Shown one piece after another: positions 10,171-63,962 of a stretch of DNA of 64,000 bases (positions are counted from its first letter, which is position 1; the number at the start of each line of letters is the position of its first letter). The stretch is from Candidatus Udaeobacter sp. (GTDB lineage: Bacteria > Patescibacteriota > Patescibacteriia > Magasanikbacterales > GWA2-37-8), in NCBI GenBank assembly GCA_035473115.1, contig DATION010000002.1, positions 169,374-233,373 of the forward strand, given 5' to 3'. A program made the translations under genes and the position numbers. Below the pieces are notes generated by a model. It did not search any database. It was not told the origin of the DNA and worked only from the letters and a program-made list of their open reading frames with translations.

Positions 10171-10617
10171 ATGATTACCAATCTTGCCGAAAATAAAAAG
10201 GCGCTATTTGACTATGAAATCCTGGAAAAATACGAGGCTGGTTTAGTGCTGTCCGGACAAGAAGTAAAATCAGCTAAAGCTGGTCAAATTAACCTAAAAG
10301 GGTCATATGTAACTTTTCATGATGGCAAAGCTTTTGTTTTGAATATGCATATCACCAAATATAAGCCGGCCGGTCCTCTCCCCGACTATGATCCAACCCG
10401 AACTCGCCAATTACTTCTACACAAAAAAGAAATAGCTTATTTACAGGGAAAATCGCTGGAAAGGGGCTTGACAATAGTGCCTTTAAAAGTGTATACTAAA
10501 CAACGCTTGATAAAGATTGAGGTCGCAATTGCCAAAGGACGCAAGAATTACGACAAAAGAGAAGTCATTAAGACCAGAGAATTAAAAAGAGAACTTGATC
10601 GAGCAAGAAAAAATTAG
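10171..10617 (+). CDS. smpB: SsrA-binding protein SmpB
   Basis: N-terminus KKALFDYEILEKYEAGLVLSGQEVKS is typical SmpB, 148 aa. Confidence 0.9.
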   Translation: MITNLAENKKALFDYEILEKYEAGLVLSGQEVKSAKAGQINLKGSYVTFHDGKAFVLNMHITKYKPAGPLPDYDPTRTRQLLLHKKEIAYLQGKSLERGLTIVPLKVYTKQRLIKIEVAIAKGRKNYDKREVIKTRELKRELDRARKN

Positions 10618-11009
10618 GGGGTGCCGGGCCTTCGACAGAAGCTCCTGGCTACACTGGCATACCGAGGCGGCTCGCAGCCTTGTAAAAAACAGAGCAATAT
10701 AATAAGTGCAAACTTATTTACAAAAGCTAAAGTTGCTGTAGCAAATTTATTTGCTGTTAGCGCTTTCGCTCCGGTAATGGCTTAATACCCAATACCCATC
10801 GCGCCAATGATACTCTGTAATTGGTTAGCGGTGTCACTAACAGAGAGTAGTTCTGCCGCAGTGTCGTCTGCGACAAAATGAAATTCCAACGACTCGTCAA
10901 TGCAATTTTCGTCCCCTTCTATTGCGTTGACTAAAAAACAAGGGACACTAAGTATGTAGAAGGTTTAGTCAAAGTTATCTACACGCGAGTTCAACTCTCG
11001 CCACCTCCA
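10617..11009 (+). ncRNA. ssrA: tmRNA (ssrA)
   Basis: The 5' GGGGGUG pairs with the 3' CACCUCC to give an acceptor stem with a G3:U70 pair. A T-arm gcgag-ttcaact-ctcgc precedes it. It lies directly after smpB. The candidate tag ORF ends ...FAPVMA-TAA at 10783-10785. Confidence 0.7.
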
Positions 11010-11045
11010 CGACGCTGAGCGTCGTAATAGGAACGCTTAGCGTTC
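11010..11045. promoter_or_regulatory. twin palindromes ACGCTGAGCGT / ACGCTTAGCGT spaced 21 bp centre to centre
   Basis: cgACGCTGAGCGTcg-taatag-gaACGCTTAGCGTtc, immediately 3' of tmRNA and 5' of infC. The same pair occurs at 50369-50404. Confidence 0.6.
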
Positions 11046-13231: not shown

Positions 13232-13305
13232 GGGTCGGTAGTTCAACTGGTTAGAGCACTGCCCTGTCACGGCAGAAGTTGCGGGTTCGAGTCCCGTCCG
13301 ACCCG
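13232..13305 (+). tRNA. tRNA-Asp (anticodon GTC)
   Basis: Cloverleaf with 7-bp acceptor gggtcgg/ccgaccc, anticodon loop ctGTCac and T-loop ttcgagt. No encoded CCA. Confidence 0.85.
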
Positions 13306-35664: not shown

Positions 35665-35735
35665 TCCGAGGTGGTCTAATGGTAGGACAGCAGACTCTGA
35701 ATCTGCTTATCTTGGTTCGAATCCAAGCCTCGGAA
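35665..35735 (+). tRNA. tRNA-Gln (anticodon CTG)
   Basis: Acceptor tccgagg/cctcgga, anticodon loop ctCTGaa, T-loop ttcgaat. Confidence 0.8.
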
Positions 35736-53161: not shown

Positions 53162-54070
53162 TTAAGAACCGTTATTAGTTAATTTCAAAAAGATGTGTTC
53201 CAAAGAAGCAGCTTCGGAACGAATTGATTTTAAGTTTTTATTATAATGATTGGTAAGCTTAGCCATATCAGAAGCTAAATCGGTGGTAATTGGAAATTCA
53301 TACTCCACACCAACTTCTGAAACTCCGGCTAGCGGAGCTGCGGAGCGATCAAACAATTCAAAGTGAATGCTATTTTTGGAAAATTCCTGCTGAATATCTT
53401 TTAATTTTCCACTTTTAATAACCTGTCCGTGATCGATAAGAGTAATTGAATCGCAAAGTTGTTCGGCTTCTTCTAAATAATGAGTGGTAAAAACAATCGT
53501 TGTGCCTTCTTCGTTTAGGCGGCGTACCAAACTCCAAATTTTTTGCCGCAAACTAACATCTACTCCGGCGCTCGGTTCATCTAAAATTAAAAGTTTTGGT
53601 TTATGCAAAATAGCTTTGGCGATCATTAAACGGCGCTTCATACCTCCGGAAAGGCTGCGCGCTTTTTCATGAACTTTATCTGCTAAACCCAGATCATCTA
53701 ACACAGCTTTTATGCGTGATTTTCTTTCCTGTCTGGGTACGCCATACATGCCGCTAAAATAATATAGAACTTCTTCAACAGTAAAAGCCATTTCCATCAC
53801 AATTTCTTGCGGCACAACACCAATAAGCTGTTTGGTTTTATTTGTCTCTTTGGCTACATTTAAACCAAAAACTTCAATATTGCCGCCAGTAGGCAGCAAA
53901 ATTCCACTGATCATATTTATGAGAGTGGACTTCCCTGCTCCGTTTGGACCAAGCAAACCAAAAATTTTGCCCGGCTCTATAGACAAAGAAACATTATCTA
54001 CCGCCTTAAAATCTTGGCCTTTGGAATTTTTAAAAATTTTACTGACATTATTTACTTGCAAAGGTAACAT
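53162..54070 (-). CDS. ABC transporter ATP-binding protein
   Basis: GLLGPNGAGKST Walker A, LSGGMKRRL signature, ILDEPSAGVD Walker B. Start at MLPLQV. Confidence 0.85.
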   Translation of the reverse strand: MLPLQVNNVSKIFKNSKGQDFKAVDNVSLSIEPGKIFGLLGPNGAGKSTLINMISGILLPTGGNIEVFGLNVAKETNKTKQLIGVVPQEIVMEMAFTVEEVLYYFSGMYGVPRQERKSRIKAVLDDLGLADKVHEKARSLSGGMKRRLMIAKAILHKPKLLILDEPSAGVDVSLRQKIWSLVRRLNEEGTTIVFTTHYLEEAEQLCDSITLIDHGQVIKSGKLKDIQQEFSKNSIHFELFDRSAAPLAGVSEVGVEYEFPITTDLASDMAKLTNHYNKNLKSIRSEAASLEHIFLKLTNNGS

Positions 54071-54213
54071 AGAAAAATATTTTATATAGATTTCAATTAT
54101 ATATGAAAAAATAAAACTTAACAAGTGTTTAAAAAAAACAAAACCGGACACGTTGTCCGGGGTTGACTCTCTTTTTTTGGAGAGTCGCTGTGTCGCTCTT
54201 GGCGACTAAGGTA

Positions 54214-54984
54214 CTACTGATCGATGGCTGTGCCGAATTCCTGCTGCGGCTCTGCAGACACTAGCCGAGCACTGGTGCCCGGAAAGTTTGGGTCACAGCT
54301 GGTCGACCCATTATCGCAGAGATCCCGCACATCGGCGGCTGTCATCAGCAGTGTGTGATGGGACAAACTCATCAGACCGGGCGTATCTGGAGGAAATCCG
54401 GAAAAATCTTCGTCCAGGTGAACTGCGCCGCCCGTGTGACAGAGTTCATGTCCTACCACATCGGCAACAGCAGAACCAAAATAAGTCCAGGCACAACTCG
54501 ATCCCACCGGACAAGAAGGAGCGATGGGGAAAAAGATAAATATGTTCTTATCCCCCTCTGCATTGTAATACCCTAGAGTTCGCTCGCCGCCTAGCTTGGC
54601 CATCTTGTAAGCGAACATATCCCGTCCCGCTTGGGTTGGGTATTCCTTGTCCGTGGGTATCCAGAAAACACACCTACCTTTTACCTGTTTGCTTTCCTTT
54701 GTTCCATAGAAAGCATCGGGTAGAATACCGGCAAGCCGGAAAAGTGGTTGTTGACCTTTCCTATTCCTGACATTGGCGTCAATGTCTTTCAGAGCCAGCT
54801 TCACCTGATAGGCGAAGGCTTCTCCATCCAAATAGGTCCCAAAGGCTTTTCCTGGATCACCACAGATGTAGATATCAACAGTCTGGTCACGGCTCAACTC
54901 CTCCCAGGGAGGAATGTCCAGGACACACGCCTGGCCAAGCAAGGCGAAACAAACCACAATAACCACAAAAATCCAGTTCTTCAT
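54214..54984 (-). CDS. secreted metzincin-type zinc metalloprotease lipoprotein (high-GC island)
   Basis: Lipobox LLGQAC. Exact metzincin motif HELCHTGGAVH (HExxHxxGxxH). AGGAGG SD. ~57% GC. Confidence 0.7.
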   Translation of the reverse strand: MKNWIFVVIVVCFALLGQACVLDIPPWEELSRDQTVDIYICGDPGKAFGTYLDGEAFAYQVKLALKDIDANVRNRKGQQPLFRLAGILPDAFYGTKESKQVKGRCVFWIPTDKEYPTQAGRDMFAYKMAKLGGERTLGYYNAEGDKNIFIFFPIAPSCPVGSSCAWTYFGSAVADVVGHELCHTGGAVHLDEDFSGFPPDTPGLMSLSHHTLLMTAADVRDLCDNGSTSCDPNFPGTSARLVSAEPQQEFGTAIDQ

Positions 54985-55045
54985 TTTGGCCTCCTAAGCC
55001 TTTGTTAAGGCTTTGATGTTTTTATCAATGAACACTACTGCTCTA

Positions 55046-59779: not shown

Positions 59780-60012
59780 ACAGATCGGGGTTAATAAATA
59801 AACTATATAGCTATCATAGCACGTTTGTTAATTAACATAAACAAAAATTCACCAAATATAATTAACTAAACAAACTAACCTTGACAAAACTATATTTTTA
59901 CAGTATATTAATTTATTATTTTCCAATGTTTAAGACTCTTATTGACCCTTACCGAATCTAGTTTTCGGTAGTCAAAGGGGTCTTAACAAAACACATTACG
60001 GCGAGGATCATC

Positions 60013-60369
60013 ATGTCCACCAAAACTGTTACCGTTGTTCTCTCTACCATGGGCTGTCCCAAGACTGGCATGCCTGCAGGAATCGAAATTGGCCAATTTC
60101 AGACAACAACCAACAATAATGGGAGCCAATCTACAAGTAACTGGCCAGAAGGGTTTCCATCCAAAAGGACTGGCCGGCAAGTCATAGACAACTGCATCAT
60201 CTTCGCTGCTATGGCAGGCGTAGACCGATCAATTTTCGAGGCATGGCGTCCTATTCTTGAAGCTTGTGGCCTGCCCGAGCAATCGCAACACGATTCGGTC
60301 TTCGACGCCTATGCGCGACAGACACACTTCACACATATGGAGCACGTGTTCGCCAGTCCGGCGGCATGA
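60013..60369 (+). CDS. hypothetical protein (high-GC island)
   Basis: GAGGA SD before the ATG. ~57% GC in a ~35% background. No motif recognised. Confidence 0.45.
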   Translation: MSTKTVTVVLSTMGCPKTGMPAGIEIGQFQTTTNNNGSQSTSNWPEGFPSKRTGRQVIDNCIIFAAMAGVDRSIFEAWRPILEACGLPEQSQHDSVFDAYARQTHFTHMEHVFASPAA

Positions 60370-60500
60370 ACCGATCTCACGCAAGCACGCAGAAGGTGAT
60401 GATGCGAGAATGAAGAAGCACTCGCCGTCCAACACCTTTTTACAAATAAAATTTGTTTGTAAAAAAGTGACGGTGAACTTCTTTATAAAAAATATAATAC

Positions 60501-60539
60501 AAAACATCTTTCTTGATTGAAAGATGTTTTGTTTTTTTT
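60501..60539. terminator. intrinsic terminator, perfect 12-bp stem
   Basis: aaaacatctttc-ttgatt-gaaagatgttttgtttttttt. Confidence 0.65.
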
Positions 60540-60675
60540 GGAAATTTTTTCGCCGAGCATTGTACAGGACGTTAAAACAATTTTTATGAATATGAATTGG
60601 CATGTTTATATGCCGCACTTTACTCTTTAGTACTATTCAATATATATTTGCCGTGTTAAGTGGTATTTATTTTAT

Positions 60676-61191
60676 CTATTCAGCTTTACTATACACCTCT
60701 TTATTTTCAATAAAAAAATTAATTTCTGTAAGCAATAACAAAAATACATTATATAAAAAAGCATCAAAATAAGCTTTGTCTGAATCAGCAACCAGATCTC
60801 TTCCTAAGTACCTAATAACAAAATCTGTATAACTTTTACCGAACGGTCTACCAATACTATCAACATCATTTTCAGTAATTTGATAATCAATATCATGAGC
60901 TGATTTATTTCTTAACGCATTGAGCTTTTTAATACTAATTATTATGTTTTCAGGCAATATTCCAAATGAATCTACTAAATTTAATTTTTGTGAAAAAGTA
61001 ATATTATTATCAGTAATAACAAAACCTCTCTTTAAGTAACTTGTTATTATAAAATCAAGGTAATACTCAACTAACAAATGAAATCTCAGTGTGGTAGCTA
61101 ACCTCTTACTATTTTGAGTTTCTGTTAAAACTTTTATAATTCTCTTAAAAGCCTCGCTGTCTACATGTAACGATTTTTCTATATTTTTCAT
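60676..61191 (-). CDS. HEPN-domain protein (R-x4-H motif), last gene of AT-rich cassette
   Basis: Motif LNALRNKSAHDID (R-N-x-x-A-H), all-helical. Start taken at MKNIEKS; the ORF extends to 61296. ~28% GC. Confidence 0.55.
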   Translation of the reverse strand: MKNIEKSLHVDSEAFKRIIKVLTETQNSKRLATTLRFHLLVEYYLDFIITSYLKRGFVITDNNITFSQKLNLVDSFGILPENIIISIKKLNALRNKSAHDIDYQITENDVDSIGRPFGKSYTDFVIRYLGRDLVADSDKAYFDAFLYNVFLLLLTEINFFIENKEVYSKAE

Positions 61192-61332
61192 AATAATAAA
61201 AAAACTAACTTCACTTAACGTTGTGCATAACCAACCTTTGCCTCTACTAATACTATATATTACGACTGCGCAGGCCTTGTGGGATGCAATTGGCACTTAG
61301 TTGGCTAAGCTATGAATAATAAGCTTTTAATT

Positions 61333-62007
61333 TTATAAAGGATTGTCAAAAGAGTAAATATCGATATCAAATTTTCTTTTTTTGATTGTTTCGTCTAATC
61401 CTTTTGCTGTATTATATAAATGGCCACTAACATTCATATAAGGAGATAGATGGTTTTCCATACGCCATTTTTTATTCCTAATTTTTTTTAATCTACCTGG
61501 TTGCAATTCATAAACCATACCAATAAAACCAGCTACTAACTCTGCGAAGGCCGACATGTGCTTTACTTCTCCAAAAGAAATGAGGTCTTTATTTGGTAAA
61601 GCTGTATCTGTTGAATAAGATTCTAAATCAACATCATTCATAATAACTACATCACAACAAATATTCGATCTGTAAAGATTTTTATCTCTATGTGCTTTTG
61701 TAGAAACTCTAAGCTGATGCCTGATTTGATATTTCAAACCGTTTTTTTTACAAATAAAATAACTGTATTTTGAAGGCGCCCCTCTTGTTGAGAATTTTAA
61801 ATTAAATATTCTTCTTCCTTTCATTTTTGGATTAACTATCTGTACTAACCAACCATTATCTTTAAACCATTTAACAGTTTGCACAAAGGTATAGGCTTCA
61901 AAAGTTTGATTAACTTTATTACCAAAAGAATTTAAATTAGTCTTCTCGTCTTTAAAAAACTCTTTTAATCCTTGTTTTGCAAATTCTTGATCAAAATAAT
62001 AACCCAT
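61333..62007 (-). CDS. putative PD-(D/E)xK-fold nuclease-like protein
   Basis: CCDVVIMNDVD...SFGEVKHM gives a D-x26-E-V-K arrangement. AT-rich cassette. Confidence 0.45.
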   Translation of the reverse strand: MGYYFDQEFAKQGLKEFFKDEKTNLNSFGNKVNQTFEAYTFVQTVKWFKDNGWLVQIVNPKMKGRRIFNLKFSTRGAPSKYSYFICKKNGLKYQIRHQLRVSTKAHRDKNLYRSNICCDVVIMNDVDLESYSTDTALPNKDLISFGEVKHMSAFAELVAGFIGMVYELQPGRLKKIRNKKWRMENHLSPYMNVSGHLYNTAKGLDETIKKRKFDIDIYSFDNPL

Positions 62008-62011
62008 AACT

Positions 62012-62464
62012 TTATCCCCTTATTTCTTTATACTTTTCTAAAATTTCATAAATATACTTCGAATTTAGTACTAAATCTCTTGTTTTATTATCCAATAAAG
62101 CTAATAATCTTTGAGCTAGCCTATCCCCCAATACTACATTTTCATTTCTTTCCTCAAAAAAAGAACGCCCTAAATAAAATCCAGAAACATTAAATTCTTT
62201 TAATATATCAATGGTTTTTTTAGCCATTCTAGACCCTTCTGTAAAAAAATTATTTATAACAAATATAAAAACTAATAAAGTCGCTTCATCTGATATTGAC
62301 CTCATCATTTTATATTCATTTTTTCTTTCATTTAGCGTTTTAATTCTAGATAGAACTTTTCTTCTATAATCATTTGGAAATAAATTATCCCAAACATAAG
62401 AACTTAGAGAATTATATCTGATTATCAGATATCTTGGTGCGTTTTTTAAGGCTTCGTTAAACAT
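62012..62464 (-). CDS. hypothetical protein (cassette gene 2)
   Basis: 150-aa ORF, 4-nt gap to the next gene. Confidence 0.45.
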   Translation of the reverse strand: MFNEALKNAPRYLIIRYNSLSSYVWDNLFPNDYRRKVLSRIKTLNERKNEYKMMRSISDEATLLVFIFVINNFFTEGSRMAKKTIDILKEFNVSGFYLGRSFFEERNENVVLGDRLAQRLLALLDNKTRDLVLNSKYIYEILEKYKEIRG

Positions 62465-62472
62465 AATTCTGT

Positions 62473-62910
62473 TTATTTCTTCCCTATCTCAGCACTTGCT
62501 TTTGCATGAAACACAAGAGCTTCATTACCTAGCCTATTTGAGAGTGGACAATAAATAAGCTCTATAGATTTAGGAAAGCGCATTTCACTACGTTTTTTAA
62601 ATTTTTCAAAAAATAATTTGTCGGTAAAAACAAGCAAACGTTTTTTTGCTTTTATCTGGGTAAGAAAAAGGATTTCGGTGTATGTTGCTTTTATTTTTCC
62701 ACCTTCTTGCCATGTATTTTTTCTAGCCACACTCGAACGAATCCCAGCAACTATCTCCCTGTCCTTTGAAACGGCGTCAAACCTGTGCAACCCACCCGGT
62801 TTAAGCTTTAGTTCAACCTCACCTATTTCAAATTCTTTTTGAAATTTATCAGCAAGCCATCCTCTAACATACGGCTCTATCTTATTTTTATAAAAATTTG
62901 TGTTTGCCAT
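62473..62910 (-). CDS. hypothetical protein (cassette gene 1)
   Basis: 145-aa ORF, 8-nt gap to the next gene. A possible D/E...K nuclease-like core (RFDAVSKDREIV) is uncertain. Confidence 0.45.
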   Translation of the reverse strand: MANTNFYKNKIEPYVRGWLADKFQKEFEIGEVELKLKPGGLHRFDAVSKDREIVAGIRSSVARKNTWQEGGKIKATYTEILFLTQIKAKKRLLVFTDKLFFEKFKKRSEMRFPKSIELIYCPLSNRLGNEALVFHAKASAEIGKK

Positions 62911-63053
62911 ATATTTATATATTTAATACGGCAATTAATTACCCTCTTATACGTTTGTGCAAGGCATCATACAGAACGTTAGAACTATTTTTATCAATAC
63001 AAATCGGTATATTTATATACCAGGTTTTACCGCTTAGCTGTACTCTCTATAAT

Positions 63054-63962
63054 TTACTCCCGAAGCTTATCTGCTATTTCAGGATTTAAAACACTCTCTA
63101 AATCTTTCCATTCGATAATATATTCTACAAGTGGACTTACTGTAAATGGACTATCAATGGTCAATAATACCCCATTTTTAGTAAATAAAAATCTTTGAAA
63201 CCCGTCATCAAAAGCTTCGCCAAAATCTTGTTTAGTATATTTGTTTATTATCTCTGACATTTTAATTGAATAATCTTTTGTAAAGATATCATTGAGCAAT
63301 ATTTCTTTATTATTAACACTATCAAATACAATTGAATCAATTGACCAAGCGCCACCTTTTACGGTTCTTCGAGAAATTCCAGAAAATATCTGCATACTAA
63401 TTAAACCATTTTCTCTTATATATATTCTATAGTTAAAAGATATGTAACTCTTATCAGATAAGTTAAGGCTGTCCGCGTTAAAAGCCTCATAATCTTGTTT
63501 AGCGAAGTAAATATTTTTATCTGTTTCTTTCTGTATTATTTCTTTGATTTTATTATTTAAAAATAGCTCACTTTCTTTGTTGGAAAAACCGCTAAATACT
63601 GGAAAAGAGGTAGTTAATTGGTAGTTATACTTTGAGTTTTTTATAATTTTAGTCGAATCAGTAACTATTATTGTTGGATGAAAATTGATTATTGTGTTGA
63701 TATAAAGATTCCTATATAGTTTTACTAAGTCATTTAAACTTTCCTCCCTTGTTTGGGAATTTATAGTTGTGATTGTTGATGAGTTAGTATTTTGATTAAC
63801 TGCTGGTGTTGATGAAATTGAATTTGTTGTAGAAATATTGTTTGTTGCTGAAGAAATATTTTTTGCTAATTTTTGTTTAATTAAAAATTTTTTAAAAAAT
63901 AATCCACCACCAATGAATAATAAGATCATTAAACTTGCTAATAAAAACAGTCTTGGTTTCAT
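63054..63962 (-). CDS. secreted/anchored DUF3298/DUF4163 (RsiV/PdaC-like) domain protein
   Basis: N-terminal TM, a Ser/Thr/Asn-rich linker and a C-terminal ...YISFNYRIYIRENGLISMQI... pattern. Confidence 0.45.
   Translation of the reverse strand: MKPRLFLLASLMILLFIGGGLFFKKFLIKQKLAKNISSATNNISTTNSISSTPAVNQNTNSSTITTINSQTREESLNDLVKLYRNLYINTIINFHPTIIVTDSTKIIKNSKYNYQLTTSFPVFSGFSNKESELFLNNKIKEIIQKETDKNIYFAKQDYEAFNADSLNLSDKSYISFNYRIYIRENGLISMQIFSGISRRTVKGGAWSIDSIVFDSVNNKEILLNDIFTKDYSIKMSEIINKYTKQDFGEAFDDGFQRFLFTKNGVLLTIDSPFTVSPLVEYIIEWKDLESVLNPEIADKLRE

Follow-up and report, generated by a model that had tools for sequence, protein, structure and literature searches.

A putative mosaic defence islet carrying a predicted PD-(D/E)xK nuclease with an all-helical partner and a HepS-related HEPN protein

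Accessory genes can be embedded in type I restriction-modification (R-M) operons; one example is prrC, which lies between the hsd genes of EcoprrI. HepS (HEPN Solo) is an abortive-infection protein of the Salmonella prophage Gifsy-1 (PDB 9oij), which works as a single-protein system and was experimentally shown to be a tRNA anticodon nuclease (PMC13043305). It rests as a tetramer; siphovirus tail-tip proteins activate it, and tRNA anticodon loops are then cut (PMC13043305). Here, four minus-strand genes were analysed in a 64,000-nucleotide stretch of DNA (the window; contig DATION010000002.1, positions 169,374 to 233,373) deposited as Candidatus Udaeobacter sp. and placed by GTDB in the Patescibacteriota. 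Gene 1 (62473-62910, 145 aa) encodes an orphan protein; gene 2 (62012-62464, 150 aa) encodes an all-helical protein, the putative partner subunit of the gene-3 nuclease; gene 3 (61333-62007, 224 aa) encodes the predicted catalytic subunit, a PD-(D/E)xK nuclease; and gene 4 (60676-61191, 171 aa) encodes an apparently stand-alone HEPN-domain protein. An original prediction, made from the sequence alone, had read these genes as one four-gene defence module. The four open reading frames (ORFs) were all present where it had placed them, but their relatives never travel together outside this organism. The segment is better described, with a probability of about 0.7, as a small mosaic defence islet, in which three independently mobile modules happen to lie side by side in this genome.

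Co-occurrence of the four genes

The set of gene-3 loci consisted of 21 genome loci, 80 metagenome loci, and loci from an exact look-up. In each locus, all six-frame ORFs were searched with hidden Markov models (HMMs) built for genes 1 to 4. Relatives of gene 1 or gene 4 were found in none of 105 gene-3 loci. This count excludes L030, a second assembly of the window organism, which is the sole locus where gene-1 and gene-4 relatives accompany a gene-3 relative. Relatives of genes 2, 3, or 4 were absent from all six gene-1 loci. The closest gene-3 relative (73% identical) is found in the gene order NERD, gene 2, gene 3, DUF6998. The closest gene-4 relative (L031) provides the only other gene-4 context seen, a 2-kb contig with no gene-3-like neighbour. 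In 97 of 106 gene-3 loci, gene 3 was directly preceded by a gene-2 relative or formed a fusion with one; of the nine loci that have gene 3 only, seven lie on contigs that end within 220 nt of it. Conservation of the four-gene neighbourhood was looked for, and only genes 2 and 3 were conserved together. Genes 2 and 3 are a conserved unit; genes 1 and 4 are separate passengers.

Composition and sporadic distribution point to horizontal acquisition, as had been proposed. The cassette has a GC content of 29.3%, compared with 39.5% for window positions 1-60000. The earlier figures were 28% and 36%; the AT-richness itself was borne out, but it extends past the cassette. The next gene upstream (63054-63962, minus strand, 302 aa) is AT-rich like the cassette, with 27% GC, so the low-GC tract continues to the window's end or beyond.

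One integrated four-gene defence system, in which a HEPN RNase, a PD-(D/E)xK nuclease, and two partners of no recognised family cooperate, would be consistent with the shared strand, with the short gaps between genes 1, 2, and 3, with the AT-richness of all four genes, and with the one terminator after gene 4. However, this system is very improbable given the absence of co-occurrence described above, and the neighbourhood data largely refute it. The neighbours differ between the closest relatives of the individual genes, a 141-nt spacer (61192-61332, minus strand) lies ahead of gene 4, and HepS-type HEPN proteins work alone (PMC13043305). The absence of a four-gene HEPN and nuclease system as a unit means that a misdirected experiment is avoided. 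The least probable explanation is that of housekeeping or DNA-repair genes with incidentally low GC. The gene-3 family occurs in about 0.01% of the species-representative genomes, gene 1 has 13 relatives in total, and the neighbour scans of 58 gene 2-gene 3 loci revealed no conserved synteny with repair genes. The mosaic islet is the reading followed below, with the gene 2-gene 3 pair as its most interesting part.

The gene 3 nuclease and its helical partner

The D...EVK arrangement, which had suggested a PD-(D/E)xK nuclease, is present in gene 3 as D119...E147-V-K149. Residues E37, D119, E147, and K149, and the adjacent H150, are invariant across 73 homologues; therefore, the motif noticed at first is functionally meaningful. 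The predicted protein has the restriction-endonuclease-like alpha/beta core fold. The similarity scores were highest for BsoBI (8.9, 149 residues aligned), followed by AF1548 (7.6), NucC (6.9), Can2 (6.6), NgoMIV (6.5), Card1 (6.2), and Bse634I (5.7). The sequence identity to BsoBI is 8%, and a sequence search of the PDB with gene 3 gave no match. Gene 3 is confidently modelled as a PD-(D/E)xK nuclease with an intact, invariant active site, and metal-dependent activity is predicted. Gene 2 is all-helical and has no recognisable relative. No helix-turn-helix (HTH), ribbon-helix-helix (RHH), or AbrB DNA-binding domain was found in it, and it resembles no known modified-base reader fold. Searches of genes 2 and 3 against Pfam and NCBIfam gave no significant match, but only chance-level matches to unrelated families (E 0.018-0.1). 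In line with the original prediction, which had recognised no named system, no named family was hit by any of the four proteins, nor was any defence model in the PADLOC search that it had proposed.

In a protein set of 5.8 billion clusters, 289 relatives of gene 3 were identified; all are annotated as hypothetical, and none has a Pfam domain. A separate gene 2 was present in 89 loci, ending -50 to +11 nt from the gene-3 start. In eight further loci, which represent about four distinct contigs after duplicate assemblies are merged, the two genes are fused in a single ORF of 372-383 aa, with gene 2 at the N-terminus of gene 3. The gene-3 family was detected in 21 of 185,579 species-representative genomes and covers about 12 phyla overall. 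The genome scan included Patescibacteria, Bacteroidota, Chlorobiota, Ignavibacteriales, Acidobacteriota, Planctomycetota, Verrucomicrobiota, Gemmatimonadota, Cloacimonadota, Myxococcota, and Bacillota; Leptospira (Spirochaetota) adds a further phylum. The best match to gene 3 in the genome collection is a Patescibacteria metagenome-assembled genome (MAG). Culturable carriers of the gene 2-gene 3 module include Flavobacterium, Leptospira, and Zavarzinella.

Several features of the pair are those expected of an accessory module that moves horizontally. In 38 of 40 loci, its GC content is lower than in the flanks, with a mean difference of 4.9 points. Gene-3 proteins that are at least 90% identical (cluster P0068) occur in the Bacteroidota isolate Yeosuana sp. 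AK3 and in a Chlorobiota MAG (L013); such identity in two phyla points to recent horizontal transfer. In Yeosuana sp. AK3, the pair forms an exact two-gene insertion between the gluconate-dehydrogenase and purL genes, with 28% GC compared with 35-40% in the flanks. No flanking repeats or insertion scars were found around this insertion.

The genes next to the pair were examined in two scans, of 117 proteins in 22 loci and 105 proteins in 36 further loci (222 proteins in 58 loci together). No neighbour family occurred in more than three loci of either scan. No methyltransferase family was recurrent among these 222 proteins. The only methyltransferase domains seen were N6_Mtase and Eco57I; neither scan had them in more than two neighbours, and the one examined, in L018, belongs to a complete type IIG fusion enzyme. 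There is no methyltransferase in the window cassette or in the Yeosuana locus. The pair is often found in defence islands. Defence genes were the recurrent theme among the neighbours in the 58 loci; they included type I R-M subunits, Eco57I/MmeI-type IIG enzymes, a cyclase and patatin of the cyclic-oligonucleotide-based anti-phage signalling system (CBASS), Abi_alpha, AbiL, SLFN_AlbA_2, FRG, DUF4917, a nuclease associated with prokaryotic Argonaute (pAgo), and PADLOC PDC candidates. In L019 (1593-9983), the order is patatin, CD-NTase, hsdS, gene 2, gene 3, hsdR, so that the pair lies between hsdS and hsdR beside CBASS. The order is DUF4917, gene 2, gene 3, hsdR in L058 (4114-9962), and type IIG R-M, DUF4062, gene 2, gene 3, UDG in L018 (1294-7335). 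A separate observation concerns a Paceibacterota contig (L002/L003, 9201-11309), in which a fused gene 2-gene 3 is followed by a 320-aa protein of no known family, a HEPN_AbiU2 protein, and a 170-aa protein, also of no known family. A serine recombinase is present in one assembly version of this contig and missing from the other. The HEPN_AbiU2 neighbour belongs to a different HEPN family from gene 4.

These features are best explained by a self-contained two-subunit nuclease, which is sometimes a single chain. Gene 3 is predicted to be a DNA endonuclease of the PD-(D/E)xK type, dependent on Mg and built on a core like that of type II restriction enzymes. Its obligatory all-helical partner is gene 2, for which a regulatory, sensor, or assembly role is proposed. 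Gene 2 may hold the nuclease inactive, or may target it, until an infection cue is received. Cleavage would occur only upon this cue, and the pair would act as a methyltransferase-independent, nuclease-based defence or abortive-infection module. Such a mechanism would share the logic of the NucC, Can2, Shedu, or Hachiman effectors but use another kind of regulatory element. For the modules of the islet in general, we infer a defence function together with its substrates and triggers. The pair can reasonably be regarded as a candidate defence module of a new, nuclease-based kind. A more specific proposal, for which the odds are somewhat short of even, is that genes 2 and 3 are a new, phylogenetically widespread, methyltransferase-independent anti-phage system. 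In this system, an undescribed all-helical subunit or domain would sense infection and unleash a BsoBI-like PD-(D/E)xK nuclease. The pair could work by itself or as an accessory cassette within type I R-M operons.

The pair differs from the known systems in several respects. Compared with BsoBI, NgoMIV, Bse634I, and Cfr10I, gene 3 has low sequence identity (the 8% given above) and belongs to no Pfam restriction-enzyme family, and the pair has no linked cognate methyltransferase in the 58 loci. BsoBI lacks, in this form, the separate or fused all-helical subunit that gene 3 appears to need. Compared with NucC, Can2/Card1, Shedu SduA, and Hachiman HamA, gene 3 lacks a CARF, SAVED, or cyclic-nucleotide sensor domain as well as a helicase partner, and it bears neither the DUF4263 nor the DUF1837 signature. 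The PADLOC models of these systems do not match gene 2 or gene 3, and the partner is a novel helical protein. The arrangement in L019, and that in L058, where the pair is directly upstream of hsdR, resembles the position of prrC in EcoprrI. However, such a placement was seen in few of the 58 loci and not in the window, and the pair has no sequence relation to PrrC.

Two other explanations of the pair were considered. Genes 2 and 3 might be a type II restriction endonuclease like BsoBI, NgoMIV, or Cfr10I with its methyltransferase elsewhere, or a modification-dependent (type IV) enzyme, for which no methyltransferase would be required. This is possible but unlikely. The absence of a recurrent methyltransferase family beside the pair argues against an ordinary type II R-M system, and in Yeosuana the pair stands alone between metabolic genes. 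No Pfam restriction-enzyme family was matched; the regulated effector nucleases NucC, Can2, and Card1 score nearly as high as the restriction enzymes; and the all-helical gene 2 has none of the folds known to read modified bases. The pair might instead be a plain type II toxin-antitoxin addiction pair, with gene 2 as the antitoxin, gene 3 as the nuclease toxin, and no dedicated anti-phage role. A small upstream gene translationally coupled to a nuclease gene, as in the 89 loci with a separate gene 2, would fit such a pair, and so would the scattered chromosomal locations and the low GC. This explanation is nevertheless doubtful, and slightly less probable than a restriction enzyme. A simple model with a labile antitoxin is at odds with the recurrent, stable fusions into a single polypeptide; gene 2 is well conserved and has no HTH or RHH domain of the kind typical of antitoxins; and the pair was not found on the plasmids of PLSDB. 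The toxin-antitoxin and defence roles are not mutually exclusive. The pair is a testable candidate defence module. It is compact (about 375 aa in total, sometimes in one gene) and combines a confidently modelled nuclease with a partner of no recognised family. The module, which covers about 12 phyla, is absent from Pfam, NCBIfam, and PADLOC v2. If it is a true defence system, a new sensor or regulatory fold would join the repertoire of nuclease effectors.

Genes 4 and 1, and the weighing of the islet reading

Gene 4 carries the RNKSAH motif that had been noticed at the outset, and its assignment as a HEPN protein was strengthened. A phmmer search against the PDB matched gene 4 to HepS (9oij_A) at an E value of 2.3e-4, and the profile of the gene-4 family (70 sequences) matched HepS at 2.3e-9. 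RNKSAH aligns with the catalytic R100-H105 of HepS; the Ala of the H105A mutant chain aligns with H99 of gene 4. R94 never varies within the family, and conservation of N95 and H99 is 90% or higher. Members of the family also weakly match the HEPN Pfam families DUF4145, HEPN_Cthe2314, Abi_2, and RiboL-PSP, and the HEPN-bearing PADLOC models Cas13b and CARF_HEPN. When all four proteins were scanned against Pfam, NCBIfam, PADLOC, and PHROG, the one informative match was that of gene 4 to PHROG 5483 (E 3.6e-15). A weak tblastn match was found in one mycobacteriophage, and a single-sequence metagenome scan with gene 4 found nothing. No phage genes flank gene 4 in the window, and it does not lie in a recognisable prophage.

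Sequence similarity and the aligned R-N-x3-H catalytic motif support gene 4 as a distant relative of HepS with the HEPN fold class. Both are single-domain HEPN proteins (171 aa for gene 4 and 212 residues for the deposited HepS chain), the similarity is significant, and neither appears to have an obligatory partner gene. No gene-4 relative was found near the gene 2-gene 3 loci when L030 is excluded. The differences are that the alignment is short and that the host of gene 4 is an uncultured low-GC bacterium, not an enterobacterium. Gene 4 may be an abortive-infection RNase, and by analogy with HepS its trigger, oligomeric state, and substrate may be similar. The protein would rest as an inactive oligomer; a phage component would trigger it, and it would then cleave RNA, probably at tRNA anticodon loops. 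The gene-4 family includes 764 cluster representatives at E<=1e-3 and would extend the recently described HepS type of solo HEPN abortive-infection protein to a range of taxa much wider than that in which HepS was studied.

The start of gene 4 is the ATG at 61191, which gives 171 aa, as judged from comparison with its homologues. The GTG at 61296, used in the original prediction, is unsupported and lies in the spacer between genes 3 and 4. The family representatives are typically 150-180 aa long, and an independent Logan assembly of the same organism has gene 4 called at 171 aa. The closest homologue (P0144, 72% identical) starts at the equivalent of ATG 61191, and the DNA 5' of its start is not conserved as coding sequence. 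Therefore, the gap between genes 3 and 4 is 141 nt, not 36 nt as first given; the other two gaps, 8 nt between genes 1 and 2 and 4 nt between genes 2 and 3, were correct. The spacer has an RNA fold z-score of -1.0 and no notable structure.

Gene 1 is the third independent module of the islet. A search of the 5.8 billion clustered proteins found only 13 homologues. Of these, one is assigned to a named host, Candidatus Uhrbacteria (Patescibacteria), and the others come from metagenome contigs; the relatives stand alone in varied, unrelated contexts. The conserved residues E12, D45, G56-x-[K/R]58, and E79 are compatible with, but not diagnostic of, a restriction-endonuclease fold. One of the 13 members matched Pfam Mrr_cat_2 (E 8.5e-4), and the gene-1 profile matched no PDB sequence. 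Gene 1 is possibly a rare small protein with a minimal restriction-endonuclease (Mrr-like) fold. A relationship of gene 1 to gene 3 was rejected (hhalign probability 0.5%). The closest gene-1 homologue (89% identical) is followed, after a 14-nt gap, by a 148-aa gene with faint HNH matches on two independent contigs (L112, 864-1762; L113, 394-1292), possibly another kind of two-gene pairing in the gene-1 family.

Several observations weigh against the reading of the segment as an islet of independent defence modules. The gaps of 8 and 4 nt leave a local functional link among genes 1 to 3 possible. Some gene 2-gene 3 loci, such as that of Yeosuana, have housekeeping neighbours only. The gene-3 family was undetected in IMG/VR viral contigs and in PLSDB plasmids, so no mobility vehicle is known. 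PADLOC v2 gave no match to genes 2 and 3 at E<=1, and no named defence model or experiment supports a defence role. No domain is recognisable in gene 2, which makes any role proposed for it a guess. Gene 4 and HepS are similar over only about 87 residues, at about 30% identity, and they may share the fold but not the trigger or substrate.

Layout and surroundings of the segment

Genes 1 to 3 are probably co-transcribed, given their short gaps. Downstream of gene 4, a terminator scan and an inverted-repeat search identified a hairpin at 60499-60532 with a 14-bp stem and T-runs on both strands. This is probably a bidirectional terminator, which ends both the minus-strand cassette and the convergent ORF at 60013-60369 (plus strand, 118 aa). 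Upstream of gene 1, the original prediction had proposed a palindrome, GGTATAT-TT-ATATACC, in the presumptive promoter region. The palindrome exists, but it lies at 63006-63021, 15 nt from the position first reported (62991-63006), and nothing indicates that it is regulatory. It follows the stop codon of the preceding gene by 32 nt, and 95 nt separate it from the ATG of gene 1 downstream. Shuffled sequences would be expected to contain 27 perfect 7+7 palindromes with spacers of 0-4 nt, and the window contains 73. This is about one per 900 nt, and a member of so common a class is not notable. Promoter-like matches in the region were at chance level (18 observed, 18.3 expected). The palindrome was rejected as an operator on both grounds.

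No direct repeats or insertion scars flanking the cassette were found in the repeat search. At the gathering threshold, the only Rfam matches in the window were a tmRNA (10617-11012, 123.9 bits) and two tRNA genes (13232-13305 and 35665-35735). None of these is near the cassette, so the insertion is not tRNA-associated. At a relaxed threshold, Rfam gave only chance-level matches over 59780-63100.

The convergent ORF at 60013-60369 has 51.5% GC within a 39% GC genome. It has no Pfam match and is also called as a gene on the independent assembly. Two hairpins lie 3' of it, at 60433-60469 and at the terminator position given above. The protein encoded at 63054-63962 has an N-terminal hydrophobic segment, an Asn/Ser/Thr-rich linker, and a weak PdaC-like match (E 0.008). 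Farther away, at window positions 54000-55000, the GC content rises to 45-52% over about 1 kb, compared with 36-42% elsewhere.

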